A stretch of DNA of 64,000 nt from positions 23,220-87,219 of IMG/VR virus record IMGVR_UViG_3300005077_000012; one strand, 5' to 3'. Each line of letters opens with the position of its first letter. Position 1 is the first letter of the stretch. A program made the translations under genes and the position numbers. Source of the DNA: a virus (Duplodnaviria > Caudoviricetes). The notes under the pieces are model-generated. The model was not told where the DNA came from and did no database searches. It saw only the letters and a list, made by a program, of their open reading frames with translations. This document shows, in pieces, positions 21,016 through 39,065 of the stretch.

Positions 21016-22401
21016 TTAGAACCAGCCGAGAGTCGAAGGAGCAACGTTCTTAATCCTGATGTGCTGCACGCCCTTCTTCACTGCCATTGTCCCGAAGAGA
21101 AGCATGAGGAACGGATACACGGCCGCGTTGGTCGGGTACAGATCGAACTTCATCATCGGAAGGAACTGCGCCCACTCGATCGCGTCGTACATCGGGTCCA
21201 TCGTCAGCATGAACACATCCGAACATCCCGGAAGGTTGCTGTTGTAGTCGTAGACGTCTCCGGTGGTTGCCGGAGCTGCCGTGGTAAACGCGTACCGGAC
21301 AGTCGCACCAGTCACGCCACCCTTGATCGACCGATAAATCTTGATACCAGTCGATGCCGGGGAACCGTTGGTAATGTTGAAGATGACGCGATCGCCAGCA
21401 GCAACCCCAGTCACGATCTGCTCGGCAGTCGCCGTACCATCACCGTACTTGTTGACGCCGACGAGCTTGTACACATAGTCGCCAGCGTCAGTCGACGCAA
21501 ACTCAGAGCTTGCGTGTGTGGTATGAGTCACCGAGTTGACTGTGAGGGCACCGGGCCTGCTTGCGGTAATCGACGACGCTGAGGGAGTTGATCCTTCAGC
21601 AATGAAGATGTCCGCGCGGAGCTTCGGGGTACCGAACGGAGTCGGATAATCCTCGAATACGGTGCTACCCGCGTTTGCGCTCCCGGGAGTAAACCGGATG
21701 CGGTCCCTGAGCATCCTTTGAACGTCTGCCATGACCATTGTCGAGCAGAAGAGATCGGTCACCTTACCGAATGACTCGCGGATGTTCCGGGCACCGAGCT
21801 CGATCTTGTTGACGAAGTCCGCGCTGGTGGCGTCCTTGCCTCTGAGGTCGAGAACGTTGGTTGACGGTATCTGAGCGATCAGACCGTCAGGCTGCTCGGC
21901 AACGATTGAGCTGTCCCCGTAAAACAGGGCCTTCTCAAGGTTCCGAATGATCCAGAGCGCGCCTGCGTTTTTCTCCAGAGCCATCGCGTCTTCGATCATG
22001 TTCGAGACGCTGGCCTGCAGCGTAACCTTCCTGAGAGTCTGAAGGTACTTCGCAGTCGCATACGCGCGGGCGATCGTCTGTTCGCCTTCGATTGAGTCGC
22101 CACCTTCAGCAACCCACGCGCCGTCGTTTGCACCGACGTCGGTGCGCTTGTCCCACTGGTGGACCGGCGACTTGATCGGTTGTTTTTTGAGTCTCTGAAA
22201 GAGAACCGCGTCTTCCTGTGAGTGCAGGACGTTGACAAGAGTCGAGTCCAGACTCTCAGGGATGAGTGCCCGGCCACCGGTGAACGCCGCAGCGTCAACA
22301 CCGGAACCAGCAGAGAGGGCCTTGCTGAGGTAATCCAGAGTCTCCTCATTCGCCCGGGAAAAACCCTCGTAGCCGAGGTCTAATTGATTGAGAATATCCA
22401 T
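21016..22401 (-). CDS. Major capsid protein (Herelleviridae/Twort-K-like)
   Basis: 461 aa; propeptide ending LSKA followed by LSAGSG...GGRAL.PESLD, ...AKYL...RKV..., KNA..WI...LEKALFYGD..., C-terminal MPMMK.DL...LLFG...K; synteny protease-scaffold-capsid. Confidence 0.9.
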   Translation of the reverse strand: MDILNQLDLGYEGFSRANEETLDYLSKALSAGSGVDAAAFTGGRALIPESLDSTLVNVLHSQEDAVLFQRLKKQPIKSPVHQWDKRTDVGANDGAWVAEGGDSIEGEQTIARAYATAKYLQTLRKVTLQASVSNMIEDAMALEKNAGALWIIRNLEKALFYGDSSIVAEQPDGLIAQIPSTNVLDLRGKDATSADFVNKIELGARNIRESFGKVTDLFCSTMVMADVQRMLRDRIRFTPGSANAGSTVFEDYPTPFGTPKLRADIFIAEGSTPSASSITASRPGALTVNSVTHTTHASSEFASTDAGDYVYKLVGVNKYGDGTATAEQIVTGVAAGDRVIFNITNGSPASTGIKIYRSIKGGVTGATVRYAFTTAAPATTGDVYDYNSNLPGCSDVFMLTMDPMYDAIEWAQFLPMMKFDLYPTNAAVYPFLMLLFGTMAVKKGVQHIRIKNVAPSTLGWF

Positions 22402-23088: not shown

Positions 23089-23934
23089 CTATCCTCCAAA
23101 ATAATTTTGTATTGTAGGCAATTTTCTTGTGATATATTGTATCAGCTCTGCTGATATGTTCGACGGGTACCCCCGGGACAGGATGAACTCCATCACGTCG
23201 TTATACGACTTGACCTTCCCGCTGGTGATCGCCGCCAGTAACGCGTCAAACACCCGACGGAGCTCCCCGTACGGGATCGAGTAGCCCTGCGCGTTGAACG
23301 TATCGCTCAGCTCCGATCCCTGTAAACTCTCCGGGGTCAACGCGCGCCCCCCGGTAAACGCCTCCGCATTGACCCCATCGCCTGCCATGAGGGCCTTCGC
23401 GAACTGCGCGAACGGGATGATCGAAACATGACCGAGCGTGCCGTCATTGACCGGCTTGTGTGTGATCGCGGTCTCATCCCAGATCACACGCATTATCATC
23501 CCCTTGACACCACCGGCGGACCCCTTCACTTTTTGGATTATTCCGCCGCCCACCGACGCACCGAGCTTCTTCGCCCCGGACAGGATATTCTGCCAGAGAC
23601 CCTGCGAAATCTTGTTCTCTTTATACAGGAACCCTTTTACCAGTGTTTCATTCCGGTCCGTAAATGCGACGTCACTCGGCTCGCCTATGATGTATTGAGG
23701 ATCGTGAATCTGCTTGTGCTTGTGGTCCCACGACAGGACGCCGTGTGTCAGATAGTAATCTGCCGCCTCCTTCAGGGCTTTACAGAAAACCACCTCAGAG
23801 TCCTGATCACGACTCTCATTCGACGCCTGCAGGTACACGTTCCACTTGCCGTCCTCCTCGACACCCTTAACAAGGGCCGACGCAAACGGAGAGTAAAACT
23901 GATCGCCACCCGCTGCCTGTATTGTCCTGCTCAT
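23089..23934 (-). CDS. Prohead protease
   Basis: AS.E.RD.D.EVV....L......G.L.WDH (catalytic His) and LG.SVGG (catalytic Ser) motifs, AITHKPVN; position upstream of capsid gene. Confidence 0.85.
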   Translation of the reverse strand: MSRTIQAAGGDQFYSPFASALVKGVEEDGKWNVYLQASNESRDQDSEVVFCKALKEAADYYLTHGVLSWDHKHKQIHDPQYIIGEPSDVAFTDRNETLVKGFLYKENKISQGLWQNILSGAKKLGASVGGGIIQKVKGSAGGVKGMIMRVIWDETAITHKPVNDGTLGHVSIIPFAQFAKALMAGDGVNAEAFTGGRALTPESLQGSELSDTFNAQGYSIPYGELRRVFDALLAAITSGKVKSYNDVMEFILSRGYPSNISAELIQYITRKLPTIQNYFGG

Positions 23935-24228: not shown

Positions 24229-24687
24229 TTATTCGACCTCGGACTGTAACGCATCCGAGACAGCGTCTGCAAAATTCCTCGAAACGCCCTCCAGCTCCTC
24301 GACCGCAGCCTCAAGATCGGCCTCGGCCTGCGCCTCGATCGGGGCCGTCAGGTGCTCGGGAATACCGAGGTCCTTCGGCTCCGTCAGGTCAGAGGTCCCC
24401 TTCAACATCCCGTCAACCTCCTCCCGGGTCTTCAGCCCGAGACGGACGGCCGCATACTTACTCCACTTCTCAGAATTCGCCGGGTCGTAGAAAACAACCG
24501 TCAGCGATCGCGACCCGTCATCGAAGTAACACTCCACGCCATTCCCGTACGAGTCAGACTTGAAATACGGACAGGCCCCGCACTCCACGTTCAAAAACTC
24601 TTGTGTCAACTTGACGATCTTGTCGACATGGAAGCAGTACACCTGCCCCGACGCATCCGCCAGATTGATATGGTTCGTCCTTGCCAT
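24229..24687 (-). CDS. Hypothetical protein with Cys motifs
   Basis: 152 aa, GGGAGGA RBS, CGACPYF...ECY. Confidence 0.65.
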   Translation of the reverse strand: MARTNHINLADASGQVYCFHVDKIVKLTQEFLNVECGACPYFKSDSYGNGVECYFDDGSRSLTVVFYDPANSEKWSKYAAVRLGLKTREEVDGMLKGTSDLTEPKDLGIPEHLTAPIEAQAEADLEAAVEELEGVSRNFADAVSDALQSEVE

Positions 24688-24698
24688 TGTAGTCCTCC

Positions 24699-27590
24699 CT
24701 ACTTAAACGATACGTCGACCCACGCCACCGGCACGATCGCCTTCGGGTTGCGCACACACCACTCATCATGCTGCAGCGGATTGCCGACCCCCGTATAACT
24801 CATAGACATCCCCTTCTTCCCGTATATTGTATCCCACTGAGAATCGTCCCGCTCACGGACGTGATCCCCGGGAGAGACTTTCCCCATCGACGTCCGGCAC
24901 TGGAGCATAACCCCGGAACCGCTCCGGGAGAATGTCCCGGCCACGTACTGCGCGCTCTTCGAGCTCGACTTCGCGAAGTAGATACCATCCCCGAGCAGAC
25001 GCCCGTTCTTCGCCGAACCGACCCGCATCCCGCCTTTAATGATACTGGCCCCGGCCTGAAAGTCCGTTCCGTGGTACAGGTACTGCTGATTGTCCTTTGC
25101 GTTCTCAATCGCTTTGTAGTCCCCGTAATAGTCGTGGTACATGACCTCCATGACCGCATTGACCTGCAACCGGTCTGAACTGTACCCGGACGACTGGTGA
25201 CTCCAGTCCGCCTTGATCTTGTCCATCCACTCCTTCTTCCCGGAGTCGCCCTTCCCTTTCAGGACGATCGTCGGCATGGTCCGGTTCCCCTTCGTCTTCA
25301 TTCCCATACTGATCGCGAGCTGTTCGGTTCTGATACCCTTGATCGCCGTGTGGTAGGCGTCTGACCCCAGCATGAGCTGATCCTTCTTCACTGGATTGTT
25401 CGGTGCGTGCGGTTTCAGACGACCCCAGCTCCACTCCGGGATAACCCGGGACTTCTTCGCCAGAGACCGCACGTTCCAGTTTGCACCGACCGCATACATC
25501 AGACTGGCCGCAGCAACGCCCTGAACGTACTGTGCATTGTACCGGTGATACTCAGACACTGACGCAACCGTCGTGTGGAACTTTCCCCGCAACAGGTTTT
25601 TTCTTACCGACTCATCGGTCTTCCCGAACTCTATCGCCGTACCAGACCGGTCCTTCTTCCACCCACCATACCCCTTGCTCGACGAACGCCACCGCCGCGT
25701 CGACGGACGAACGGCAGTGCTCATCTTCTTACCCATGTAATACTTGACAAGGCCCATTGACCCCGGCATCGCGTCGCCGTAATCCTTGAACCGGACATCA
25801 AAATTCACGACCGAGTTTGAGTACCGTCGATCGCTATCCCGCACCGCGCCGGTACATATTCGCTCCAACCCATTATCCAAATCTACCAGAGAGTACATCT
25901 CCAGAGACATAGCATCTCGATACGGTGTAAACAAGTTCTTCACCGCCTGCATGGTAGACTTCTCGTTGATTGGATACTTCCCCAACGTCCTGCCCGCATC
26001 GATGATCGAGTCAAAATACTCCATCCCTTTCCCTACATATCCACCGGTATTCGGATAGGAGACGTTGATCCCGTTATTCCACTTCACGGTCTTCGCGCGC
26101 ATCATACTCTTCAGATCGTTCGCAATATCACGCCACGTTGCCTCAGGGTTCAGATGCACCTTTTTACTAACCCCGTTACCCCGCGCGACCGCTCCGAGCT
26201 CAACGTAGTCCCGTGACTGCAACCACGAATCTACGGAGTACGCCGAGTCCGGGACAACCACATACTTCTGCAGGAACGCACTGATCGCCGGGTACTTCTT
26301 CCGAAGGGACTCCCCGGCAGCCTTCAGATCGTCATAACTGTACTGCTTCACCGGACCCGAATACGATGACCCAGACCATCCCGTATTCGCCACCTTCCCG
26401 TACTTCTCAAGCCACGGTTTGATAACCTTCTCACCATAGTCCGGATGCAATGCGCCCATTACAAAAGACGTGTACGTTTCAGAATCCCAATGCTGGTGTG
26501 AATTATAAACAACATCATCGATACCCAGCACCGTAAAAAACTCTTGTACCTTCGACGGCAGGTCCTTGTAAACGTCCCTCCAACGCTCGGTCACAGCAAG
26601 CAACTCCGCTCCCGGAATGATCGTGGAGACCAGTGCCCCCGGGAGCCGGTCAAGACTCTGCGTCCCCCGCAGAGAATAATCCAGCTCGCCCAGCTTCTCC
26701 AGCAGGCGCTTGTCATTTTCTTGCGCCTTCAGCAGGTTGATCCACCGCTGTGCAACCACCTGCGACTCCTCAACCTCACGATCAACGGCCGCATCGATAG
26801 CGCCCTGATTATATCCGTACCAGTTCTTCTGGACATACTCCGTAACGCGCTTCTTGTATGCTGCGGTCTTCGCCTCCGCCAGAAACTCCTCCATCTTCGC
26901 CTGCACCTCTTCGAGAAACAGCGGGTCCTCCAGCCACTTTCCATCGGAGCCCATCGGTATATCCGGGGCGATCTTCCCGAACTCGGTCTGCTGCTCCTTC
27001 GTCATCTTGAATATGTTGTCAAGGTTCTTCGACACATACTCCTCGGCCTCCTTGTTCAAGCAGAGCACACCCGTGATATCACACAGGTCCCGGGCATCAT
27101 CGCTGGCCTCACGCCAGTAGAGCTGGTGCTTCTTCGGTGCCTTGTCCAGCTCGGCGTCAGAGGGCCGATCGGAAGACACCGGGCTCGCCTGCCCGGACTT
27201 GCGCTTCTCTTCCTCCTCCTTCTTCTTTTTCTCCATGTTGTCTTTCATCTTGCCCAGACGTTTCTTGCGGGCCTGCTCGTCTTCGTATGCCTTGACGTCC
27301 GCAGGCGTGACCATGCCGTCGTACACCCACTTGCCGTTTGCGTCCTTCCGGACCCACTGCGCGTGCTTCGTCCCGAACCCGTGTATCTTCCGGGTCCCGA
27401 TCGGGAGCGGAGCCCCTTTCCGCAGCGTTTCGAGAAAAATTACAAGGCGCGCCTTACTTATCCCGGCCATGCGCTTGTATACTCCCATCACATAGGCGTA
27501 GTCGTCACCGCGCCCCTCCCGGGCGGCGGCCTCCTTTGCTTTCTCCCACTTCGCCTCGTCGACCGGCTTCCCGTGTATCTTCTTCGGCAT
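24699..27590 (-). CDS. Tagged large protein with C-terminal PARP-family ADP-ribosyltransferase domain
   Basis: Start MPKKIHG at 27590 after GGAGG; tag KGAPLPIGT...KDANGKW; C-terminal YLYHGT...GIYFAKSSSKSAQYV...HDEWCV (H-Y-E triad). Confidence 0.85.
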   Translation of the reverse strand: MPKKIHGKPVDEAKWEKAKEAAAREGRGDDYAYVMGVYKRMAGISKARLVIFLETLRKGAPLPIGTRKIHGFGTKHAQWVRKDANGKWVYDGMVTPADVKAYEDEQARKKRLGKMKDNMEKKKKEEEEKRKSGQASPVSSDRPSDAELDKAPKKHQLYWREASDDARDLCDITGVLCLNKEAEEYVSKNLDNIFKMTKEQQTEFGKIAPDIPMGSDGKWLEDPLFLEEVQAKMEEFLAEAKTAAYKKRVTEYVQKNWYGYNQGAIDAAVDREVEESQVVAQRWINLLKAQENDKRLLEKLGELDYSLRGTQSLDRLPGALVSTIIPGAELLAVTERWRDVYKDLPSKVQEFFTVLGIDDVVYNSHQHWDSETYTSFVMGALHPDYGEKVIKPWLEKYGKVANTGWSGSSYSGPVKQYSYDDLKAAGESLRKKYPAISAFLQKYVVVPDSAYSVDSWLQSRDYVELGAVARGNGVSKKVHLNPEATWRDIANDLKSMMRAKTVKWNNGINVSYPNTGGYVGKGMEYFDSIIDAGRTLGKYPINEKSTMQAVKNLFTPYRDAMSLEMYSLVDLDNGLERICTGAVRDSDRRYSNSVVNFDVRFKDYGDAMPGSMGLVKYYMGKKMSTAVRPSTRRWRSSSKGYGGWKKDRSGTAIEFGKTDESVRKNLLRGKFHTTVASVSEYHRYNAQYVQGVAAASLMYAVGANWNVRSLAKKSRVIPEWSWGRLKPHAPNNPVKKDQLMLGSDAYHTAIKGIRTEQLAISMGMKTKGNRTMPTIVLKGKGDSGKKEWMDKIKADWSHQSSGYSSDRLQVNAVMEVMYHDYYGDYKAIENAKDNQQYLYHGTDFQAGASIIKGGMRVGSAKNGRLLGDGIYFAKSSSKSAQYVAGTFSRSGSGVMLQCRTSMGKVSPGDHVRERDDSQWDTIYGKKGMSMSYTGVGNPLQHDEWCVRNPKAIVPVAWVDVSFK

Positions 27591-27615
27591 GGCTATACCC
27601 CTCCAGTAATCTTGA

Positions 27616-28749
27616 TCATGCGCCCGCCTGCTTTGCCATCGCAGCGTCGAGCATATCATAGTATTTCTTCATACCCGGCGTATACCGGGTCCATGTACAC
27701 CTGCAGTGCGGGTGTTGCGTCCCGGCAGCAACCCACCACTCCCGGGCCTTCCGTCCAAAATTGTTCTTACCCGGCCAGATCGCGGTATACCGGGTCCCGT
27801 CAACCTCTATCGTATCATCACCACCGGACGGGGCCGCATCCAGCAGCACCACGATCCGTCCGTTGATGTGTGTGGCACAGAACGTACAGGCCCCCGGCCC
27901 GGACACCCCACGCATGAACACGAACTCATCCGGAGACGTCACCTTCTCGGCCACCAGATACCCGTTATTAAAATTCGTCGCGGTCTCGGTCTCCGCGATC
28001 CTGCGCCAGTCCCGGTTGAGTGTTGAGAACGTATCGAACAGCTTCCGCTCGGTCTCCCGGGCCGTCAGGCGGTTCTTCTGCGCGTCCAGTATGGACGACA
28101 CCACCGCCCGGCGCGCGCTGTCCGATATATCCTGTATCAACTCCCCGGTATGCACTTCGGAGAAGTCCCTAATGTTCCGGTAGACCTCGTCGGCCGTCAG
28201 CTTCTTTACCTCGGCGTCGACAGCAGGTTTCAGGTCAGTATACGTCTTGCTGATCTGGTCCTCGACCGGCATCCCCTGTAATATCTTACCCAACGCCATC
28301 GCCCGAAGGACCAGAGACTGCTCGACCTCACCGAACAGGTACCCGAAAACACTGTCCAGATCGTGTGCAATCACCTCCCACTCCGCCCGGGTCAGGGCCT
28401 GCCCGGTCGACGGGTTTATGTACGTCGTCCCGTTCAGGATGAACGGATCATCCCCCACGGCCTTGCGAAATTCATCGAAATGGTCCCCCATCCCCTTCGC
28501 GACATCCAGCCTCAACCACTTCGTCGTAATCTCAGTCAGGACCCGCTGCAGCCCCGCCCGCACCTGATCCCGCAGAATATCGCTGAGCTCCTGCAGGGCC
28601 GGGTAGGGCGTCGGCTCGGTTTTCTCGGTATGGTTGTGTGCAACCTCGGCCGGGACCTTCAGGGCCTTCGACAGGGCCTCGACGACTGCCCGGAGCTTCT
28701 GCTCCGCCTTGTCTTCCGGATTGTGTATCTCAATTATGATCTTTTCCAT
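27616..28749 (-). CDS. MuF/SPP1 gp7-like minor head morphogenesis protein
   Basis: RDWRRIAETET..F..G, G.C.FC and terminal HPHCRC motifs of the MuF family; no C-terminal toxin extension. Confidence 0.85.
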   Translation of the reverse strand: MEKIIIEIHNPEDKAEQKLRAVVEALSKALKVPAEVAHNHTEKTEPTPYPALQELSDILRDQVRAGLQRVLTEITTKWLRLDVAKGMGDHFDEFRKAVGDDPFILNGTTYINPSTGQALTRAEWEVIAHDLDSVFGYLFGEVEQSLVLRAMALGKILQGMPVEDQISKTYTDLKPAVDAEVKKLTADEVYRNIRDFSEVHTGELIQDISDSARRAVVSSILDAQKNRLTARETERKLFDTFSTLNRDWRRIAETETATNFNNGYLVAEKVTSPDEFVFMRGVSGPGACTFCATHINGRIVVLLDAAPSGGDDTIEVDGTRYTAIWPGKNNFGRKAREWWVAAGTQHPHCRCTWTRYTPGMKKYYDMLDAAMAKQAGA

Positions 28750-28869: not shown

Positions 28870-31221
28870 TCAGAACAGTCTGTGCCGGAGCCCGACCACA
28901 TACGCCAGACGCCGGATCGCTTTCAGCAGTTTCGGCCCGAAATGCTTTTTCAACAGGCCCTCGAACTTCCCGTCCTCAAACATCGCATAGGTCGGATCGA
29001 CCTCCGGGAACCCCCAGCCGAACGGATTGTCCGCCGCGTCCCCCACCGCATCCATACGCTCGTCCGTCGTCGTATACTCCGGCTGCTTCGCCTTGTACCG
29101 GATAAACTGGTCAAAGGTCCGGGCGAACACCTCGTTGACGTCGCCCCAATACCGGGACCGCTTCGAGTAATAGTCGGAGTGTGTCTGCTTGCGGAATGAG
29201 TGTACGGTAACCTCGGACAGGTGCTGTGAATACATCTCGAACGCTCGGTCCACAACCTTTGCCGGTGCAAAACGTACCCGGTCAACGATCGATTTCAGAT
29301 CGTCCACAGAATAGACTCCCTTCGTCTCCGATACGATCGCAGGACCATGCTTGTCCGGGTCATTCAACGCATTGCGCAGCGTCGAAAGGAACTCATCCGG
29401 CGTAACGGTTCCGTACCGATCATCCGCCTGATTAGCGTTGTGGAGCATGGCACGCAGGCTCGGCTCAACGATCTCAACGAACTTCAGGACATCCAGACCC
29501 TTACGCCCGGCAAGGTCCGGGTGCGCCGTCAGGTACCCGCCGATTTCCGACAACGCCACGGCAGACGACTGATCGATGTACGTCTTGAACGCCGCATGAG
29601 ACGGATTGAATGTCTCCTTGATCTTCTGCTCAAGACCAGACGCCTTGACCCACTCCTTGAACTCGTCGACCAACACCTTCCCGCCCCGGTAAAAAAAGTA
29701 ATGTCCCGCTTCGTGTACGATCGCCCCCGGGTACGACGGGGAGATATTCAACGAATGGTCCTTCTCGACGTAGAACCCGGCCGCCTTCTTCGACGCCTTC
29801 GCAATCCGCAGGATCATCTTCTTCCCGTCTGACGGAACGTAGTCCTTGAAATTGACCACGGACGAGATCGTCGAGAACACCTTGAACAATGCCCGCAGGC
29901 TCGGGGCCGACAGCTTCGCCTCCCTCCCGGGGATGATCGCATCGGTTGTGATCTCCAGACCGATCTCATCCCGGAACGCGGTGACGAGCTTCGCAATCTT
30001 CGGATCAGTCGCCATCAGGTGATCTTTATACCCGGCGGTCCCCTTGACGTACTTCATGATCCGCTTCTTTGAACTCTCATCCGCGAACTTGTTCAGGACC
30101 CCCTCGATCTTGTCGTACGGTATCGGAATGTACGGCAGAACGAGGATCGAACGCCGCGTCGGATTGACATCGGAGAACTGGAGTCCAACCCGGCCGTCAG
30201 TCATCACCATCGAACCGGTTATCCCCAACTTCCCGATCGGCTCACGCTGCATCGCATTGTAGGATTGCCTCAACTGCGCAGCGGCGGCAGTCGCATAACG
30301 CAGATTGGATATGGCGTTCCTCGAAGGAACATCCAGACCGGACTGCACACTCTCAAGGGCCATCAGGTCCTGATACAAGGTTCCCGCCGCGCCGATCGAC
30401 TTCGAGTCCAACAGGCCGTCCTCGAAGTCCTTGAGCTGCTTCCACCCGGTATAAAAGTCTGCCGCGTCCGGCGGCTGCACTTTCTCCCGAACCGCGTCCG
30501 GGAGCGCGTCGAGTTTTTGCTGCAGGCTCTCCAGAACGGCCTTCAGCGCATACTCCATCGACGGAGCCGACTCATAATCCCACGTTGCCGACATCGCGGC
30601 CTCGGCGTCCAGCCCGGGAACCTTCTTTTCCTCAGCCTTCTTCGGAACCACCTTCGGTTTCTCCGGCTTCGGCCGCGTCCACATCGCCACCGACGGCCGC
30701 CCCATAATCTTCTCATCATCGTCCAACTGCACCCGGTCCCACGTCACGATCTCAGCGTTGGCGTCCTCCTTGCTCAGGCGGAAGCGTTCCTGCGCCTCCT
30801 CCAGTGTCAGGTTGTCATACTCGGTAACCGGGCTGCCGTCGACGTGCACAACGAACACACGGTGCGTGTTCGCACGCTTCGCCTTCGGAGCATCGGGCTT
30901 CTTCACCTCCGGGGCCTTCGACCCTTCCATGAGCTTGTGCTTCAGTACATATTTGACGATATCGGTGTCGCCCTTCAGGTCGTGCCCGACTTCGGCCTTC
31001 ACCTTCTCGATGATCTCTTTGCGTCGGTCCGCAGTGAGCTTCGCCCACCAGTCGAGAACCTTTGCACGCTCAGGCCACGGCCGGGCACCCTCATGCACCC
31101 CATCAACGACCTCAACCCACTTCTTATCCGACGCCTTCCGATACTTCCGACCCTTCCATTCCCGGATCGTACCAACCGGGTACGCCTTCCCTTTGATCAT
31201 CAGTCTATAGATTTTTAGCAC
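28870..31221 (-). CDS. Tagged large protein with zincin (HExxH)/LPD1-like C-terminal domain
   Basis: N-terminal tag KGKAYPVGTIREWKGRKYRK...W; IVHEAGHYF and YYS...YW...NEVFARTFDQFI. Confidence 0.75.
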   Translation of the reverse strand: MLKIYRLMIKGKAYPVGTIREWKGRKYRKASDKKWVEVVDGVHEGARPWPERAKVLDWWAKLTADRRKEIIEKVKAEVGHDLKGDTDIVKYVLKHKLMEGSKAPEVKKPDAPKAKRANTHRVFVVHVDGSPVTEYDNLTLEEAQERFRLSKEDANAEIVTWDRVQLDDDEKIMGRPSVAMWTRPKPEKPKVVPKKAEEKKVPGLDAEAAMSATWDYESAPSMEYALKAVLESLQQKLDALPDAVREKVQPPDAADFYTGWKQLKDFEDGLLDSKSIGAAGTLYQDLMALESVQSGLDVPSRNAISNLRYATAAAAQLRQSYNAMQREPIGKLGITGSMVMTDGRVGLQFSDVNPTRRSILVLPYIPIPYDKIEGVLNKFADESSKKRIMKYVKGTAGYKDHLMATDPKIAKLVTAFRDEIGLEITTDAIIPGREAKLSAPSLRALFKVFSTISSVVNFKDYVPSDGKKMILRIAKASKKAAGFYVEKDHSLNISPSYPGAIVHEAGHYFFYRGGKVLVDEFKEWVKASGLEQKIKETFNPSHAAFKTYIDQSSAVALSEIGGYLTAHPDLAGRKGLDVLKFVEIVEPSLRAMLHNANQADDRYGTVTPDEFLSTLRNALNDPDKHGPAIVSETKGVYSVDDLKSIVDRVRFAPAKVVDRAFEMYSQHLSEVTVHSFRKQTHSDYYSKRSRYWGDVNEVFARTFDQFIRYKAKQPEYTTTDERMDAVGDAADNPFGWGFPEVDPTYAMFEDGKFEGLLKKHFGPKLLKAIRRLAYVVGLRHRLF

Positions 31222-31222
31222 G

Positions 31223-32005
31223 CTACTCCCCCATCAGATCAGACATCAGCTTCTCCATCTCTCGGTCCAGCCCGCGCAGTTCCTCCGCCGTCGTCTGTGA
31301 AACCTTCCGCGCATGATACAGGATTTCCCGCAGACCCATCTGTATCTTCGTTACCTGCTCCATGTTCGCATCGAATAACTCCTCCCGGGTCACATCCGCC
31401 GCGTAGAAGTACAGATCGTTCAGGATGGAACTCGCCAGCGCAATCAACGACTCGACCTTCCCTTCACTGAAGGTCCGGAACTCCACCTCGTCAAACTCCT
31501 CCATCGGGTGCTCCCGAAACATATTCCGAACCTCACGCAGCAACTGAGTCCGCAATTCAACCAACACCAGACGGTAGATATTAAACGAGTCACACAGAGT
31601 CGCGTGCTGGATGGACTTCCGCTTCAACAGGTCGATGTATATCCCCTGCATCAACAGCAGCAACTGATCACCACGCTCCTCGGCATAACTCATCTGCCCG
31701 CGTAACAGCAGCACGTTCCTGATCTCCAGCTTCCGGGTCAAGAGCTTGACCGTCTGGTTCAGCATCGTCACAACATCCCGGGAATGAGGGCACATCGCGT
31801 GCGGGCTCTTGACAGGCTTCGCCTTCGCCCTTCCCGGAACCCCGTCACCACCGATGTCCAGCTCCTTACCGCCGCTCACGATCCGCAGACCCCGACGGAC
31901 GATCAGGATCGCAGAGTACCCCAGCATGAACGTCAGGCCGGACGCGAATACCATCTGAAACCACTTCGGCAAGTCATTGAGCCAGTCTATAAATGTCGTA
32001 AACAC
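31223..32005 (-). CDS. Membrane-anchored coiled-coil protein
   Basis: One hydrophobic segment (WFQMVFASGLTFMLGYSAILIV) followed by a long helical domain. Confidence 0.65.
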   Translation of the reverse strand: MFTTFIDWLNDLPKWFQMVFASGLTFMLGYSAILIVRRGLRIVSGGKELDIGGDGVPGRAKAKPVKSPHAMCPHSRDVVTMLNQTVKLLTRKLEIRNVLLLRGQMSYAEERGDQLLLLMQGIYIDLLKRKSIQHATLCDSFNIYRLVLVELRTQLLREVRNMFREHPMEEFDEVEFRTFSEGKVESLIALASSILNDLYFYAADVTREELFDANMEQVTKIQMGLREILYHARKVSQTTAEELRGLDREMEKLMSDLMGE

Positions 32006-32041
32006 CGAAACCCCCCGCGCACGATCCCGAACGCCGTCACG

Positions 32042-34783
32042 TTAAATCCGGACCCACTGATCCGCTGCTTCTTTCCTGTAACTCACCCCGGCGCGGGAAC
32101 GCTGCGTCCCGATCGGGAGTGCTCCGCCCCGGTTGAGCTGCCAGTAGCGCTCCTCACGCTTGATACTCTTCGCGAGATCGTCCGGGAGCTCCTGCGACTT
32201 CTTCGCTTTCGCCTCACGGAACTTCTTCGCCACGAACGTCCCGGCGGCGTCAATGCTGGAGAACTCGCCCTGACTCTCCCCACCACGCTCCACGGACACT
32301 TTACCGGAACCGTCGGTGTGCTTCTTCACGGACCACCACTCACCGTCAGGACCTTTTACTGTACCCGATGAATCTCCTTCCATACTCTCAAGGATACCCT
32401 CGGCCTCGGCGGACAACCCGTCGTCCCCGGCAGGCTTCGCATCGGACTCATGTCTCTCTCCAGACGACACACCGTAGTTCTTCACATACTTCTCCACCGC
32501 CTCTTTAACAGTCTTTGACTGCGCCGTCGTCGAAAGGTAATGGAGCCGCTTTGTATCCGGGTCCTTATACCCCAGATCGATCTGTCCGTGATTGGTCTTC
32601 CACCCCTTGATTGTATCCAGATTGATCTGAGGGTCTTTGACTCCCAGCTCCTTCAGCTTGTTTAAAATCGGACGTGCGTTATACTTCGACCCACCACCAG
32701 CAGCGGGCTTGCCCTCTTTCACAGGCTCCCACTTCCCGGCAGCGACCTTCTTGTACTTCTTCCCCTTCCAGTCACGGATTGTCCCGGGCGGAAGTCCTCG
32801 GCCTTTGTTCAGCCAGACCACCGTGTCCTCCTTGCGCAGCTCCTCGATCGCCTTGCTCATGTCTTCCGTTTCGAGAAATTTTGCAGGCGTCTCTGCAACC
32901 TCAAGCTCCGCATCCGGAGTCGTCGTCCCCAGCCCGATATTCCGCTTCGCGTTCAACGTCAATTTCCACTCGTTCATAAATTTCCTCGCCTTAAATAGTT
33001 TGCCCTGCCCTTCTGCCTCCATCGCAGCATCCCGGAGCTTCGACAGGTTTTTCTTCGCCTCTATATGTGTTTGTATCGCCTTCAGATCATCCGGATCAAG
33101 CTCCGACCGCAATGCCGCTTCAGGGACTTCCTTCCATCCCCCGGTCCTCGATGAATGATCATAGTACTCGGCCTCGACTTTGCCCTCGGCAGTCACCCGG
33201 TACCCATTCGCGTCCAGTATGTCCTTGATTGACTCAGGGTCCGCATCTGCCTTCGCCTGATCGTACCGCTCCTGCGCCGACCCGCCGCGCTTCTTCTCCG
33301 CACGCTTCCCGGACTCATGCTTCTCGCGCTCGGCAGCCAGCTCCTTCTCCATCCGGGCCTTGTCATCCGCATCGCGCTTCGCCTGCGCTGCGTCGCGCTC
33401 GGCCTGCGCCTTCTTACCCGCCTCGTATTCCCCGGGAAGCTCGTCGATCCTCTTGCTGACCTTGTCCGCACCCTGCTTCTCGACGATCTTACCCAGCGCA
33501 TTGATCGCCTTCTGCCTGCCCCCCAGCTCCCGGACAACCAGCATCCCGGTCTTCTTGTCAACCAGAGCGTACCCGGCCTTCCCGGACGGGAACGTCATGT
33601 CAAACCCCCAGAACTCCCGGTCAAGGTCCTTCACCTTCGCGGGTTTCATCGACGTACCCTCGGGGACCTTCACCACATTCCCCATGTGATCCGACACCTC
33701 GGTCGGGGCCTTCTCACCTTTCGCTGCGCCCTTGTCCGATTTCTTCACGGCAGCACCGGCCTGCTTGCTTGCCTCGGCAGCCCCGGCCACACCGCCGCCT
33801 TCGCTCGTCGCCTCGACGGTCTTCGCCGCGCCCTTGACGGCGGCCTCACCTTTGCCCGCAGCCTCTTTGATCCCACCCGCAATGTCCTTAACCGAATCAG
33901 ATATGCTCTGTGAACTCGACGTCGACGCCTGCTTCTTTAACCGCTCCAGCATCGCGTCCAGATTGGACTTGTCCTCACTGTCCGGCAGGTTCTTAATGTC
34001 CGACTTCAGCTTCTCATACGTCGCATCCCCGAGCTTCCCGCCCGTCTTCGGGGCCGCATCAGAATCACGCCCTCCCGTACGCACCGCCTTTACCGCAGCC
34101 TTCACCTGCTCATCAGAGGCCCCGGGCTTCAACTTCCCCGTAATTTTGTTAAGTGTATCCACGTCGAGTCCGATATAGTCATTGCTCGCAGAATCCTCCG
34201 CGCTCCACGCCCGCATAACACGGTTCTCCAAAACCGTCTTTTCACCTTTATCCATCTGGGGCTCCCCAGCCTGCGCATCACCTTCAGGCTCGCCCTTCGC
34301 TGCACCCTTGCCACTCTTCACGCGCACCCAGCCGGTGTCTCCCTTGCGGTACTTCTTTCCCTTCCATTCCCGGATAGTCCCGACCGGCAACGCCTTCCCC
34401 TTCTCCAGAGACTCCAGCTCTCGCAGACTCTTCGCTGCACTCTCCATCCTATCAAGACGGGTGTAATAGTCCGGTATCTCGGCCAGATGATCCCGCGCAA
34501 TCTTCTCGGCCAGCTTCGGGTCATCGGTGTGCTCGGCCTCGACCTCGATCCCACGCTTCAACTGCTCCGGGTCCGGGCTCGTCTTCGCGGTCTGACTCCG
34601 GCCCTTACCAATGAAAGACCCCAGAATCGCATAGATCATCTCCTCGACCCCGTGCTTGTTCCACCCATGCGCCTCGGCCCACTCATGGACCTCGTAGTCC
34701 TCCGGCTTCGGGTTCTCACTCAAGAATCGCTCAACCTGCAGCCTGCTCGGGCGTGCCTTATCGAGTTTTTGTACGCGTATCAT
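32042..34783 (-). CDS. Tagged large protein (three tag copies) with N-terminal DUF5661-like domain
   Basis: EQLKRGIEVEAEHTDDP..AEKIARDHL.EIPDYYTRL (DUF5661-like); tags near 34320-34410, 32720-32810 and 32045-32140; low-complexity K/A/E/G linkers. Confidence 0.8.
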   Translation of the reverse strand: MIRVQKLDKARPSRLQVERFLSENPKPEDYEVHEWAEAHGWNKHGVEEMIYAILGSFIGKGRSQTAKTSPDPEQLKRGIEVEAEHTDDPKLAEKIARDHLAEIPDYYTRLDRMESAAKSLRELESLEKGKALPVGTIREWKGKKYRKGDTGWVRVKSGKGAAKGEPEGDAQAGEPQMDKGEKTVLENRVMRAWSAEDSASNDYIGLDVDTLNKITGKLKPGASDEQVKAAVKAVRTGGRDSDAAPKTGGKLGDATYEKLKSDIKNLPDSEDKSNLDAMLERLKKQASTSSSQSISDSVKDIAGGIKEAAGKGEAAVKGAAKTVEATSEGGGVAGAAEASKQAGAAVKKSDKGAAKGEKAPTEVSDHMGNVVKVPEGTSMKPAKVKDLDREFWGFDMTFPSGKAGYALVDKKTGMLVVRELGGRQKAINALGKIVEKQGADKVSKRIDELPGEYEAGKKAQAERDAAQAKRDADDKARMEKELAAEREKHESGKRAEKKRGGSAQERYDQAKADADPESIKDILDANGYRVTAEGKVEAEYYDHSSRTGGWKEVPEAALRSELDPDDLKAIQTHIEAKKNLSKLRDAAMEAEGQGKLFKARKFMNEWKLTLNAKRNIGLGTTTPDAELEVAETPAKFLETEDMSKAIEELRKEDTVVWLNKGRGLPPGTIRDWKGKKYKKVAAGKWEPVKEGKPAAGGGSKYNARPILNKLKELGVKDPQINLDTIKGWKTNHGQIDLGYKDPDTKRLHYLSTTAQSKTVKEAVEKYVKNYGVSSGERHESDAKPAGDDGLSAEAEGILESMEGDSSGTVKGPDGEWWSVKKHTDGSGKVSVERGGESQGEFSSIDAAGTFVAKKFREAKAKKSQELPDDLAKSIKREERYWQLNRGGALPIGTQRSRAGVSYRKEAADQWVRI

Positions 34784-35021
34784 GTTTCTTGCCTCGCTTT
34801 GATTTTTTCATGCTTGAACCTGTATGACTAACGAGTGCCAGAACCTCCGGGATCGGAGAGCACCTGAGACACCCGTAAATATAATTCCCAACACCGCCAT
34901 GCCACGGACCAACTTCCACCCTGAACATCCACTCCCAGCGGAACGAACGCTCACACAACACACACCGTCTCCTCCGAAACGTGAACACCCTGTGCACCCG
35001 GGTCGGCCCACCAGCACGCAC
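34758..35021 (-). CDS. Small Cys-containing hypothetical protein
   Basis: CVLCERSF...CLRC pairs; exact start uncertain. Confidence 0.4.
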   Translation of the reverse strand: MRAGGPTRVHRVFTFRRRRCVLCERSFRWEWMFRVEVGPWHGGVGNYIYGCLRCSPIPEVLALVSHTGSSMKKSKRGKKHDTRTKTR

Positions 35022-35287
35022 TACAGGACCTCCATCAATATCCCGCAGTACTGACCCACGTACAGCTCGCGCTCCACCGGTCCCTCGAACGGGCTATCGT
35101 ACGTCAAGACCCGCTGCTTGTCCGACTCGACAAGGTCCTCGGGCCCGACCTGATCCCCATCCACATCACAATTCGCTCCGACATAAAACGCATCCGGGTC
35201 CAGCGTCTCATACCATGCACCCATCCCGATCAGCGTGCGATTTTCCTCGATACCGCGCCAGTACTCCACAATGTTATACGCCATCAC
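35021..35287 (-). CDS. Hypothetical protein
   Basis: 88-aa acidic ORF overlapping the upstream stop codon. Confidence 0.6.
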   Translation of the reverse strand: MMAYNIVEYWRGIEENRTLIGMGAWYETLDPDAFYVGANCDVDGDQVGPEDLVESDKQRVLTYDSPFEGPVERELYVGQYCGILMEVL

Positions 35288-37317
35288 CGCAACTCCCGCA
35301 TTATAGTCTGATAGATCGTCTCGAAGTGTCCGTTCCAGATCGCTCCACCCTGATCGTACTTCATGAAATTGGCCTTGAACTTCTTCATGCCTTCAACCCC
35401 GTCCTTCTGGACGACCTGATTTTCAAGGAACCGCTTTTTCTGTTCAGGCTTCAGCTTGTATACATACTGCAGGTTGTCCCGTATATGCTGATCAGTCTCC
35501 GGCGTCGTCTTATATCCCCGGGCAAGGAACTTGAACGACCTGAGCGTATAGCGCGGAGAGTGTGGTAACATCTTCGGATTGCAGAACTCCAGCGTCTTGC
35601 CCTCCAGTGCCGAGAGACCCTTCCCGGTCGCATCAATCATCACCCCGGTCAACGGGTCCAACTGCAGCGAGTTGATCGTGAAGTCCCGGGACTCAGCGTC
35701 GCCCTTCAGCCGCCAGCCCTTGACCTGCCACGATGGAACGTCGTCAGAGTGTTTGTGGACCGGCGTGATATCCACATCGACCCCGGCGTCCTTGATAGTC
35801 ACCAACCCCAGCCGGTCATTCAACGACCACGTATTCGCCCACGCCGGATTGAGTCCCTTGACTATGTGCTGCAGCTCGCCGTCAGAGCAGTTCGCAATGA
35901 AGTCAACATCCTTCGAGTCCCCGCCCTGCAGGAAGTCCCGGACGGTCCCACCCACGATCGTCAACGTGAACCCGGCAGCCTTGAACGTCTCACACAGCTT
36001 CCGGTACGTCACCTTCGATTTACCAATACGCGTCTCCATGACCTTCGCCACCGACGCGGCCATCTCCCCAGAGATATGAAACAGGTTTTTATCTTCCAAA
36101 CCATCATACAGCGAGTGCTCCTGTATTACCCCGTCAGGCTTAACGTTCTGCCAGCGTGAGTCGATCACCCGGCCATCGCTCATCTTGATCAGTGCAGTTC
36201 CCTTGTTCCCCAGAGCAACCAGCTTCCCACGCTGACCGGAATACTTCTGGTGCCCCTGCCCGGTATAGACCACACTCTGCCCCTCGATCATCCGGTCCCG
36301 ACGCGTGGTATCCTTTATCAACTGCTGCGCGGCCCCGGCGGCCACATCCTGCAGCTTCCCCACCTTGACACTGACCGCATGGTCCTGTAGCGCCTGCGCC
36401 GCTGCCTTGTTCTGCGCCGGTGTCGGGGCCTTCGCGCCCGGGTTTACCACACCGTCGTACAGCCACTTCCCGTCTGCACCCTTCTTGTACCAATAGTTCC
36501 CGTACTGCTTGCGTGTCCCGATCGGATCGCCGCCCTTCTGCATTTCGAGATATTTTGCAGGCCCGAACCGCATCGTCCTGAAATTAAACAAAGGGACCAT
36601 CATCCCGATCCCCTTCGATAGATCATCCAGATCATCAGCACTCTTCTTGTACCCCAGCCGCTCGCTCAGGGCTTCCTTCGCGGCCTGCTTGCGCTGCGCA
36701 TCCCGCTCAGCCCACTGCGAACCCTTTGCGCTCTCGTCCGGGCCCTTCGCCGGAGCTTCGCCATCCTTCACCTTAACAATCTTCACCGCGCCCTTGATCG
36801 ACTGGACGTTCCCCTGACCTTCCGGGGCTTCAGGATTGAAACGGGTCTGCCACTGCATCGCGAACTTGCCATCCCGGGAATACAGCCGCTTCTGCTCATG
36901 GTCCAGACGCCCACCCCGGAACAACTTCCGGGACTCGTCCCCCAGCTCGCCCATCGCCTCCTCAAACCGGTGCGACAGCTTCGCAGGCGTGTTCACGTAC
37001 GCCGTCGCCATGTCTTCCTTGTCCTCAGTGGACATCTCCCCGGACGACGGGTCCCCGGGCTTGTCCGATCCACCCCCGGGACGCTCGGCACCCTTTTCCT
37101 TCCCAGCACCCAGCGGGGACCACTGCCCCTCGGCAACCTTCCGATACTTTGTTCCACCCCAATCAGCAACGGTCCCGACAGGCATCCGCTTGCCCGCCTT
37201 CACGAACGCCTCCGCGTCAACGCAGTTAACCCCGTGGTACACAGGGCCAGACAGGTCGTCTATCATTTCGAGAATTTTTGCAGGTGCCACAACCGGAAAG
37301 TCTAATATTCGTGCCAT
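35284..37317 (-). CDS. Tagged protein (two tag copies) with C-terminal class II nucleotidyltransferase (CCA-adding/poly(A) polymerase fold)
   Basis: IVGGTVRDFL...KDVDF (motif A, DxD), VDIT (motif C), ESRDFTINSL (motif B), G...D..G.G...L, SPRYTLR (altered motif D). Confidence 0.85.
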   Translation of the reverse strand: MARILDFPVVAPAKILEMIDDLSGPVYHGVNCVDAEAFVKAGKRMPVGTVADWGGTKYRKVAEGQWSPLGAGKEKGAERPGGGSDKPGDPSSGEMSTEDKEDMATAYVNTPAKLSHRFEEAMGELGDESRKLFRGGRLDHEQKRLYSRDGKFAMQWQTRFNPEAPEGQGNVQSIKGAVKIVKVKDGEAPAKGPDESAKGSQWAERDAQRKQAAKEALSERLGYKKSADDLDDLSKGIGMMVPLFNFRTMRFGPAKYLEMQKGGDPIGTRKQYGNYWYKKGADGKWLYDGVVNPGAKAPTPAQNKAAAQALQDHAVSVKVGKLQDVAAGAAQQLIKDTTRRDRMIEGQSVVYTGQGHQKYSGQRGKLVALGNKGTALIKMSDGRVIDSRWQNVKPDGVIQEHSLYDGLEDKNLFHISGEMAASVAKVMETRIGKSKVTYRKLCETFKAAGFTLTIVGGTVRDFLQGGDSKDVDFIANCSDGELQHIVKGLNPAWANTWSLNDRLGLVTIKDAGVDVDITPVHKHSDDVPSWQVKGWRLKGDAESRDFTINSLQLDPLTGVMIDATGKGLSALEGKTLEFCNPKMLPHSPRYTLRSFKFLARGYKTTPETDQHIRDNLQYVYKLKPEQKKRFLENQVVQKDGVEGMKKFKANFMKYDQGGAIWNGHFETIYQTIMRELR

Positions 37318-37428: not shown

Positions 37429-39012
37429 TCACTGGACGATTATACGCAGGACGCGCTCGTCTCCCATTGACTTCTCAAACGCGGCCCGCCAGTCTTCTCC
37501 GGGCTCCTGCCCATCTTCAGCACCATCGCCACCCGGCTCTCCGCCGTCCCCCGGCAGCATCTCCTCACCGGGGACGCCTCCAGCTTCCGGAAGAGCTCCC
37601 TCATCTCCGCCATCGTCAGGCGCGCCTCCGGGCCCCCCCATCGTCTCGGCCTGCTTCGACTGTGCGTATATCTGAACAGCCTGCGGATTGAGAACAACAT
37701 TCGCGTAATCGTCTTCGATCGGATCATCACCGTCCTCCTCCCGCAGCTCATTGATAGTCTTCGTTGTCTCGATCATCTGCCGCCGTATCTGCATCCGCTG
37801 GAGCTCGTCTTCCCGCTCGATCCCGGTGAACTCAAACGACCACTCCGTCGTGACCTTGCGTATGATCTTACCGACGTGCTGCTCAGCGAACGCCAGCAGT
37901 GAACTCAGGCCGCGATCCCGGGACGCCTTAATCCTCGGCTCCCCACTCTCCCCGATGATCGACTGACTGTCATCCGCCTTGATCCCGATCTCAGCAAGGT
38001 CGATCGAGAACACCGCACCGATAACCGACGACAGGAACATCATGAGCTTGTGATATTCCATGTCCCGGTTCGACTGCCCGAGATTTTTGAAGTCCATGCC
38101 GACGCCCTCTTTCCCGCTCGGCAGGATCGGGATATTCCACGCTCCCCCGGCCCCGCTCATGGCCGCGTACCAGTACCGGCGGATTGAGTCCATCTGCGTC
38201 TGCCCGATGTCCCCCATTACCGATATGAACCCCTTCGGCACCCGGTCCCGGACGAGCTGGTCCCGGATGTAGTTATACCCGAACAGCAGCGTCGTGATCA
38301 GGTCAATGCACTGCTCAACCGGAGAGTAACCCCAGCCACGGAACCGCAGGTCCACCCGCTTGTTCTTGTAGTCGAACAGCAGGTCCTCGGACGTGTACTG
38401 GTTGTAAATTTTGTTGTCGATCTCTTGAACGAACCTGATGTCCTTCTTGAATGGACTCTGGTCCACCTCGGTAGTCACGCGCTTGATGTACGCCCCGTCC
38501 AGCAACCAGAACGCGATCGCCTCGCCCTTCCGGTTGTACTGTATCTCGGTCGCCACCTGATCGATGACCAGCGTCTCCCGGATCAGCATCGACAGGTAGT
38601 CGCTGAAGTCGTCCTCGCGGTCTGCATCATACTTGAACCCGGTCTGATCTATGAAGTTATGCAGCTCCCGGATCAGGGCCTGATCCCCCTTGACCGACTC
38701 CTTCCCGTCCCCGTCCATCGTCCGGATCAAATGAAACCCGCGCTTGCCACGCTCCTCGGTGAACTTCGTGAACGGCAGGCACTGGTCGATCCGTGCGTTG
38801 ACGATTGCGTTGATCAGCGGAATACGGTCCACGGTGTTGCGGATCGTAATGTAATTTATTCGGAGCAGCTTCTCCCGGACTCCCCGGAGTGCCCCTGACT
38901 GGACGAACGACATATACTCGGGCATACTCAGCAGTGATTGGAGCTTCGCTGCAGTCGCCTCCATGTTGATCAAGGCCGACCGCCTCTCTCCACGCTTCGT
39001 ACGCTTCGCCAT
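37429..39012 (-). CDS. Portal protein
   Basis: Twort/K-like portal motifs (LVIDQVA.E...R.G....F..LDG..I, GYSPVEQ, NRDME(Y/F)..L......F.ID..EIG, S.D.GL..LL); start MAKRT after GGAG. Confidence 0.9.
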   Translation of the reverse strand: MAKRTKRGERRSALINMEATAAKLQSLLSMPEYMSFVQSGALRGVREKLLRINYITIRNTVDRIPLINAIVNARIDQCLPFTKFTEERGKRGFHLIRTMDGDGKESVKGDQALIRELHNFIDQTGFKYDADREDDFSDYLSMLIRETLVIDQVATEIQYNRKGEAIAFWLLDGAYIKRVTTEVDQSPFKKDIRFVQEIDNKIYNQYTSEDLLFDYKNKRVDLRFRGWGYSPVEQCIDLITTLLFGYNYIRDQLVRDRVPKGFISVMGDIGQTQMDSIRRYWYAAMSGAGGAWNIPILPSGKEGVGMDFKNLGQSNRDMEYHKLMMFLSSVIGAVFSIDLAEIGIKADDSQSIIGESGEPRIKASRDRGLSSLLAFAEQHVGKIIRKVTTEWSFEFTGIEREDELQRMQIRRQMIETTKTINELREEDGDDPIEDDYANVVLNPQAVQIYAQSKQAETMGGPGGAPDDGGDEGALPEAGGVPGEEMLPGDGGEPGGDGAEDGQEPGEDWRAAFEKSMGDERVLRIIVQ

Positions 39013-39065
39013 TCGTTTCTCCGATGTGTGTGTAGTGTGTGAGCCTTCCCTCTCTCTCACCATCT

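Follow-up and report, generated by a model that had tools for sequence, protein, structure and literature searches.

Does the head-gene block of an uncultured phage encode a working enzyme of the PARP family, and what would such an enzyme do for the phage? The question is raised by a 64,000-nucleotide stretch of DNA (the window), which covers bases 23220-87219 of the 87,219-bp IMG/VR virus contig IMGVR_UViG_3300005077_000012, a record estimated to be ~96% complete and derived from an uncultured phage of 87 kb and 55% GC. A first-pass annotation of one minus-strand open reading frame (ORF) had proposed a "tankyrase-like" ADP-ribosyltransferase (ART) domain with an intact His-Tyr-Glu (H-Y-E) triad in a head-region protein. 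By sequence, profile and modelled structure, the protein encoded there does end in a PARP-family ART domain of the H-Y-E clade. Its gene is strictly paired with a small gene encoding a protein with four conserved cysteines (Cys4), and this partner is the new element of the finding. The best explanation overall, which we hold with modest confidence, is a packaged PARP-type ART that is delivered with the DNA and acts on host macromolecules, with the Cys4 protein as its likely regulator.

The motifs on which the proposal had been based (YLYHGTDF, IIKGG, GRLLGDGIYFAKSSSKSAQYV, LQC and HDEWCVRNP) were all found in the minus-strand translation. The Pfam model PF00644 (PARP) matched the protein with an E value of 2.5e-14 (53.7 bits against a cut-off of 26.7) and scored 57.9 bits in a six-frame search of the genome, and phmmer against the PDB returned PARP3, tankyrase-2 and -1, and PARP2 as best matches. 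A family profile built from 50 sequences (alignment A1) retrieved PARP1 with E 9e-33, spanning the whole ART domain, PARP2 with E ~1e-31 and tankyrase-1 with E 7e-24. The domain had been placed at 24699-25130, which is the right location but not the full extent, as it runs from about 25280 to 24702.

Structural comparison pointed the same way. The AlphaFold2 (AF2) model of the ART domain had a predicted local distance difference test score (pLDDT) of 91.8 and a predicted template-modelling score (pTM) of 0.87, and aligned best with tankyrase-2 (Z 19.9, root-mean-square deviation 2.9, 183 of 200 residues aligned). Further matches were tankyrase-1 (Z 18.4), PARP1 (18.2), PARP2 (18.0), PARP13 (17.3), PARP3 (17.2), PARP4 (16.8) and TASOR (16.3). 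The tankyrase-2 and PARP1 alignments ran from model residue 8 or 1 to residue 200, and Foldseek likewise put the ART domains of tankyrase and PARP1 on top with E ~1e-11 (best 7e-12). The structure comparison that had been suggested as a check on the proposal thus returned PARPs as best matches; the best ART from outside the PARP family was diphtheria toxin, at only Z 7.4. A match of the model to a pre-ejectosome chain of cyanophage A4 (Z 5.4) scored too low and was not used.

The profile alignment placed the family motifs HG, GiYlA, SKSaQY and ndEwcV on PARP1 H862, Y896, K903/S904/Y907 and E988. In the window protein, K878, S879 and Y882 (SKSAQY) correspond to PARP1 K903, S904 and Y907, and the triad is intact, with the Glu of HDEW aligned to E988 as had been claimed. 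Among 150 aligned domains, comprising the window protein and 149 relatives (cluster representatives), the His was kept in 147, the first Tyr in 149, the Lys in 148, the second Tyr in 149 and the Glu in 149. All five were invariant in alignment A1, and His840 was invariant also in alignment A3. These alignments show the full NAD+-binding and catalytic set (His840-Gly, Tyr871, Lys878, Ser879, Tyr882, Glu943) to be under strong conservation across the family. Given the retention of H, Y, K, Y and E in 147 to 149 of 150 domains, we read the protein as a working enzyme rather than a pseudo-PARP, and the domain is very probably active.

The label "tankyrase-like", by comparison, was too specific. 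The family profile matched PARP1 and PARP2 (E 1e-32 to 1e-31) better than tankyrase-1 (E 7e-24), and the structural Z scores were nearly tied. Tankyrase likeness was limited to the local motif GIYFAxxSSKSxQYV and to the lack of a recognisable helical regulatory domain, which by Pfam tankyrases lack as well. Tankyrases carry ankyrin repeat clusters, a SAM domain and a zinc-binding Cys/His motif in the catalytic domain, none of which is matched in the phage protein. A Pfam scan at E values up to 1 returned PF00644 only, with no ankyrin, SAM, WGR or PARP_reg domain, and the translation shows zero cysteines from the central sheet up to the catalytic Glu, which means that the tankyrase zinc site is missing. 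The DNA-dependent PARPs (PARP1-3, HaPARP and CdPARP) differ in that WGR and PARP_reg domains precede the ART domain; neither was detected in the phage protein by Pfam, and the model of residues 180-790 had no PARP-related match, although at 611 residues a helical subdomain could escape detection in it.

What the phage domain shares with eukaryotic PARP1, PARP2 and tankyrase-1 and -2 is the fold (Z 18-20), the donor-site motifs HG, GIYFA and SKSxxY, and a catalytic Glu on the same strand. It differs from them in sequence (~20% identity), in the lack of a zinc-finger module by Pfam, in a shorter loop from the central sheet to the catalytic Glu than in PARP1 (gaps in the profile alignment), and in its position behind a phage-specific N-terminal part of ~770 residues. 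The bacterial PARPs of Herpetosiphon aurantiacus (HaPARP) and Clostridioides difficile (CdPARP) are also prokaryote-borne PF00644 proteins with an H-Y-E triad. These synthesise poly(ADP-ribose) (PAR) in vitro, but are cellular genes of WGR-(PARP_reg)-PARP_cat architecture whose products depend on activated DNA (PMC5966428).

The interval first annotated, 24699-25130 on the minus strand, comprises the last 143 codons of a 986-codon open frame (24699-27659), followed by the stop codon. The true start is most likely the ATG at 27588-27590, giving 963 aa, because a Shine-Dalgarno (SD) sequence (GGAGGGG) sits 7 nt before it, a MuF-like gene ends just upstream at 27616, homologues of the protein start with the same MPKxI, and the database gene call agrees. 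The frame's first 23 codons (27591-27659, minus strand) overlap the end of the MuF-like gene and are without a ribosome-binding site. The resulting protein has four parts: a tag of ~30 aa, a Lys/Glu-rich linker, a helical region of ~600 residues and the C-terminal ART domain (Table 1).

Table 1. Features of the PARP locus and its surroundings (window coordinates, except in the last row, where coordinates refer to the named loci).
Feature	Position	Strand	Description and support
PARP-domain gene	24699..27590	minus	963 aa + TAG stop; ORF list, translation, database gene call of 963 aa
ART domain, C-terminal	24702..25280	minus	~aa 771-963; PF00644, AF2, structural and profile matches
His840 of the H-Y-E triad (HG motif)	25071..25073	minus	= PARP1 H862; codon checked
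Tyr871 of the triad (GIYFA)	24978..24980	minus	= PARP1 Y896; codon checked
Glu943, catalytic Glu (HDEWCV)	24762..24764	minus	= PARP1 E988 (YNEYIV); codon checked
Middle region, mostly alpha-helical	25290..27122	minus	residues 180-790 of the 986-residue frame; AF2 pLDDT 78.5, pTM 0.76
N-terminal tag, ~30 aa	27327..27419	minus	KG..LPIGT.R...G...W.RK...GKW; residues 58-88 of 963 aa
Tag copies	27327-27419, 31117-31194, 32054-32131, 32729-32806, 34328-34402, 36463-36537, 37120-37200	all minus	
Cys4 partner gene	24229..24687	minus	152 aa, four Cys, acidic tail; alignments A4 and A5; adjoins the PARP gene
MuF/SPP1-gp7-like minor head protein	27616..28749	minus	377 aa; PHROG minor head/head morphogenesis, E 2e-4 to 5e-4
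Three large tagged proteins (783 aa; 913 aa with DUF5661; 677 aa) and an untagged 260-aa gene	28870..37317	minus	Pfam, tag copies
Portal protein	37429..39063	minus	phrog_12, E 8.6e-38; upstream limit of the tagged-protein block
Prohead maturation protease	23089..23934	minus	phrog_1028, E 9.6e-15
Major capsid protein, SU10/SPO1-like	21016..22401	minus	phrog_752, E 5.5e-66; PF17236
Other Cys4 members	L002 12932-13339; L010 4126-4407; L012 9916-10218; L013 1259-1549, 5111-5413; L003 6673-6936		

The partner gene starts 11 nt past the PARP stop codon and has its own SD. In its family, whose members are ~90-170 aa long, C18, C36, C39 and C53 are invariant and H6, N8, Y17 and D57 near-invariant; the protein had no match in Pfam or PHROG and no sequence match in the PDB. 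A Cys4 member adjoins the PARP gene, or lies one gene off, in all 16 loci examined, with searches in both directions, so that the two genes are strictly paired. It is directly downstream in the window and in L002, L004-L007, L010, L011 and L012 (the two genes overlap in L010 and L011), second downstream in L009, and directly upstream in Bacillus phage YungSlug, while L013 has two Cys4 paralogues, one on each side of a single PARP gene. The reverse search, from four independent Cys4 members, found a PARP-domain gene immediately upstream in four of four cases; one of these was unannotated and was recognised by the family hidden Markov model with E 1.4e-70. A term search of a comparative survey of viral ARTs (Iyer et al. 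2022, PMC9503650) returned no zinc-ribbon or cysteine-rich entry, and both of its mentions of an "immunity protein" concern other toxins. Most likely, the Cys4 protein either acts as an inhibitor, silencing the enzyme in the cell that produces it, or serves as a cofactor for specificity or activation.

The surroundings of the pair were themselves partly conserved in more distant loci. In L009, L012, L015, L016 and L017 it is followed by a gene for an HD-domain protein (PF01966) and one for a ~680-aa protein, and in L009, L012 and L016 an InPase (PF18823) gene precedes it; these neighbours suggest a larger conserved cassette.

In the window, the minus-strand order is portal, 677-aa, 913-aa, 260-aa and 783-aa proteins, 377-aa MuF-like protein, PARP protein, 152-aa partner, protease, 221-aa scaffold-like protein and major capsid protein (MCP), with tail fibres farther along, beyond the MCP. 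The earlier placement in the phage head region was therefore correct, as the gene follows a MuF-like head gene and precedes that of the prohead protease. The MuF-like protein has an HPHCRC motif near its C-terminus and a 60% identical orthologue at the same position in L002, an 86-kb contig carrying a 51% identical relative. The arrangement is kept in L002, L004, L005, L006 and L014, and the MuF-like protein, protease and MCP of relatives with the MuF-PARP-protease position are 41-84% identical to those of the window. Synteny of the three large tagged proteins is kept in L002, L004 and L005. Among distant relatives, the PARP gene lies beside portal, terminase, protease or MCP genes in L003 (Bacillus phage YungSlug), L010, L012 and L013, and the N-terminus of the YungSlug PARP protein matches a "virion structural protein" PHROG (E 6e-4).

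A further connection to the head block is the tag, which precedes the linker. In the form KG..LP[VI]GT.R.W.G..Y.K...G.W, it occurs in seven copies in four proteins of the portal-to-protease block, one copy being in the PARP protein; pairwise blastp comparison of the copies gave E 6e-9 to 4e-7. Homologues P0012, P0014, P0015 and P0018 have it at the extreme N-terminus. The tag may be a capsid-loading or common-binding module. One of its carriers, the 677-aa protein (35284-37317, minus strand), has two tag copies and a PolyA_pol-type nucleotidyltransferase head domain (PF01743, E 2.8e-17), and is a possible second enzymatic cargo.

The rest of the PARP protein resembled little in the databases. 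Its N-terminal ~770 residues had no Pfam or PHROG match, and the ESM Atlas gave no usable match for residues 180-790. That region, modelled as one 611-residue piece (alignment A2) in which a single domain may have been missed, had a best Foldseek E of 0.25 and a best structural Z of 5.2, on designed helical bundles. The N-terminal part is common to ~20 of the 149 cluster representatives, the others joining the same ART domain to different N-termini. The PARP domain lies at the extreme C-terminus in 132 of the 149 (median protein length 735 aa), a placement that resembles, by analogy, that of MuF- and portal-fused effectors.

Gene order, the tag and the C-terminal effector placement together point to packaging of the PARP protein. 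In the scheme we propose, the protein would be produced late, together with the head proteins, and enter the procapsid, probably by means of the tag that it has in common with three neighbouring large proteins. It would leave the capsid with the DNA at infection and, drawing on host NAD+, would ADP-ribosylate macromolecules of the host at an early stage, while the Cys4 partner would either silence the enzyme in the producing cell or set its specificity or activation. Such a role would be functionally like that of T4 Alt, with an H-Y-E (PARP-type) catalytic domain in place of an Arg-Ser-Glu (R-S-E) one.

Several observations weigh against this scheme or parts of it. The position two residues ahead of the catalytic Glu is occupied by His in the window protein, by Asn in most relatives and by Tyr986 in PARP1, and PARP3 and PARP4 are H-Y-E enzymes that make mono-ADP-ribose only. 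Tag copies are also found internally and at one C-terminus, unlike a T4-type capsid-targeting peptide. The ~600-aa helical region had no match to ejection or internal proteins of known structure, and in L009, L015, L016 and L017, where the PARP-Cys4 pair is part of an InPase/HD cassette, the stretch retrieved contains no gene recognised as a head gene.

The last two of these observations, and the fact that structural gene order shows late co-expression only, would fit an enzyme that is active but unpackaged. Expressed late with the head genes, it would act within the infected cell, in assembly-stage modification, in blunting a defence based on NAD+ or ADP-ribose, or in shutting down the host before lysis, with the Cys4 protein as regulator. 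We consider this improbable, though it is the strongest of the alternatives. It does not account well for the conserved MuF-protease position in relatives (41-84% identity for MuF-like protein, protease and MCP), nor for a tag common to three other proteins of the same block, and the C-terminal effector position is that of MuF- and portal-fused cargo (PMC9503650).

Within the packaged scheme, a bolder version is conceivable, in which the PARP domain and its obligate Cys4 partner would act as a two-component system that the virion delivers and that makes genuine PAR or ADP-ribosylates nucleic-acid ends, the partner being an HPF1-like active-site or specificity factor or a zinc-finger sensor acting in trans. 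We regard this version as speculative and rather unlikely. Polymer synthesis requires the H-Y-E triad, but the triad does not suffice for it, and PARP4, which matches the ART model, is labelled a mono-ADP-ribosyltransferase in the PDB. No ART-PolyVal, Macro, ARH, PARG, NADAR, NUDIX or NAPRTase was detected in the 87-kb genome; with no detectable eraser or NAD+ salvage gene, nothing points to a phage-encoded reversible PAR cycle. A two-component system of this kind, if real, would provide the first demonstrated case of a phage turning PAR-type modification against a bacterium. Delivery of a PAR-making enzyme along with the DNA would bring into bacterial cells a modification that is usually regarded as eukaryotic. 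An enzyme acting in the manner of T4 Alt would be an ordinary addition to the known host-takeover enzymes.

A packaged PARP domain might also have nucleic acid rather than protein as its target, modifying DNA ends or RNA and perhaps capping the entering linear genome against host exonucleases, or marking host DNA or RNA. There is precedent in PARP1-3, which work at DNA breaks, and in DarT, whose substrate is DNA; modification of DNA or RNA is attributed to PARP1-3 and certain other PARPs, in part by PMC9458441 and PMC8190142. PARP1 and PARP2 are the closest sequence relatives by profile, the partner is a small Cys4 protein of a type that often binds nucleic acid, and a neighbouring tagged protein is a nucleotidyltransferase. 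Against these points stand the lack of a WGR, zinc-finger or other DNA-sensing domain in the Pfam scan of the PARP protein, and the fact that sequence does not discriminate between protein and nucleic-acid acceptors. A nucleic-acid target seems to us a long shot.

We give still less credence to a toxin-immunity-like pair, in which the PARP protein would chiefly deplete NAD+, by runaway automodification or hydrolysis, and the Cys4 protein would shield the producing cell as the cognate inhibitor of the enzyme. Pairs of this sort usually have a small gene closely linked to the ART gene on its immediate downstream side, as seen in the 11-nt spacing here and the overlaps in L010 and L011, and the strict linkage would agree with it. 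However, Lys878, Ser879 and Tyr882 with the catalytic Glu make up a transferase set, and a partner copy lies upstream in YungSlug and L013. Finally, that the domain is a catalytically dead structural relic is hardly credible. Pseudo-PARPs such as PARP13 and TASOR do exist and give good matches to the model, but the window protein has kept every NAD+-binding and catalytic residue, each almost invariant across 149 diverse relatives.

The packaged, DNA-delivered PARP that we favour belongs to a kind already catalogued; the finding is correct, but its implied novelty was overstated. PARP-type ARTs of phages and their linkage to head genes have been described (PMC9503650) and are annotated in GenBank. 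The same survey ranks PART (PARP) as one of the viral ART families encountered most often and infers head packaging for ~44% of phage ARTs from fusions and gene neighbourhoods; the bench-characterised phage ARTs encountered there (T4 Alt, ModA and ModB) are all of the R-S-E clade. No paper assaying a phage PARP was found in the literature searched, in which PARP-type phage enzymes are known from comparative genomics only. The window protein is a clean, intact example from a new phage lineage, and adds two testable handles: the strictly co-inherited Cys4 gene and the tag common to three other proteins of the block.

The closest annotated counterpart is the 869-aa "PARP polymerase" of Bacillus phage YungSlug (QKE56383.1), encoded between a MuF-like gene and the portal gene. 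It belongs to the same family, with 33-34% identity over the ART domain (tblastn E 9e-15; blastp E 5e-21), and is likewise a large protein with a C-terminal PARP domain, encoded beside a MuF-like gene and a portal/protease/MCP block with an adjacent Cys4-family gene. The two differ in their N-terminal 700-800 residues, which are unrelated in sequence, and in gene position, between MuF and protease in the window but just before the portal in YungSlug. Other cultured relatives with the PARP-Cys4 gene pair are Bacillus phage Nachito and the Lysinibacillus phages LysYB1 and LysYB2. YungSlug is a 150-kb Herelleviridae phage, whereas the window derives from an 87-kb uncultured myovirus of 55% GC, classed as such from a tail-sheath gene located just beyond the window edge, which implies a contractile tail.

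T4 Alt offers the same proposed logic: an ART made late travels in the head and enters the host along with the DNA, there to modify host proteins. Its packaging and processing were shown experimentally and its motif is R-S-E; for the window protein the motif is H-Y-E, which excludes membership in the Alt family proper, and packaging is predicted from context. MuF-fused effectors and polyvalent proteins with ART-PolyVal or N4-ART domains (Iyer et al. 2017, PMC5512222) are likewise large proteins of the portal/MuF neighbourhood with a C-terminal host-modifying enzyme. The ART domain of the window protein is PF00644, not PF18760, and MuF is a separate gene. Polyvalent proteins are defined by at least two disparate activities in a virion or transfer context; the context fits, and one enzymatic domain was recognised in the window protein.

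ARTs of the polyvalent type do occur among close relatives. Both L014 (1-907) and L002 (5915-7657) encode, within the same block between portal and protease, an ART-PolyVal protein (PF18760), and two different ARTs are thus found together in some phages of the group; the 783-aa protein of the window (28870-31221), its positional counterpart, had no ART match. Two tandem PARP-domain matches were seen in L006 (6828-7169 and 9335-10087).

Searches for further relatives returned few. Megablast against 50,697 phage records found no close DNA relatives, and an IMG/VR scan with the ART domain alone had no match, while one seeded by alignment A3 recovered four loci. Patterns from A3 found no relative in GTDB representative genomes, and hence no prophage copy and no host assignment. 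No tRNA was found in the window. A direct Pfam scan of the distant homologue P0117 did not bear out its weak, precomputed "Phage_SPO1_gp51" label, which was dropped. The MCP is ~29% identical to those of Herelleviridae (Bacillus SPO1-like phages) and of Pseudomonas phage Touem01. Residues 18-73 of the MCP and 163-227 of the protease have a common 65-residue segment (43% identity, E 3e-8); this cross-match recurs in L002, L004, L005 and L006, and may mark a common scaffold- or core-binding segment.

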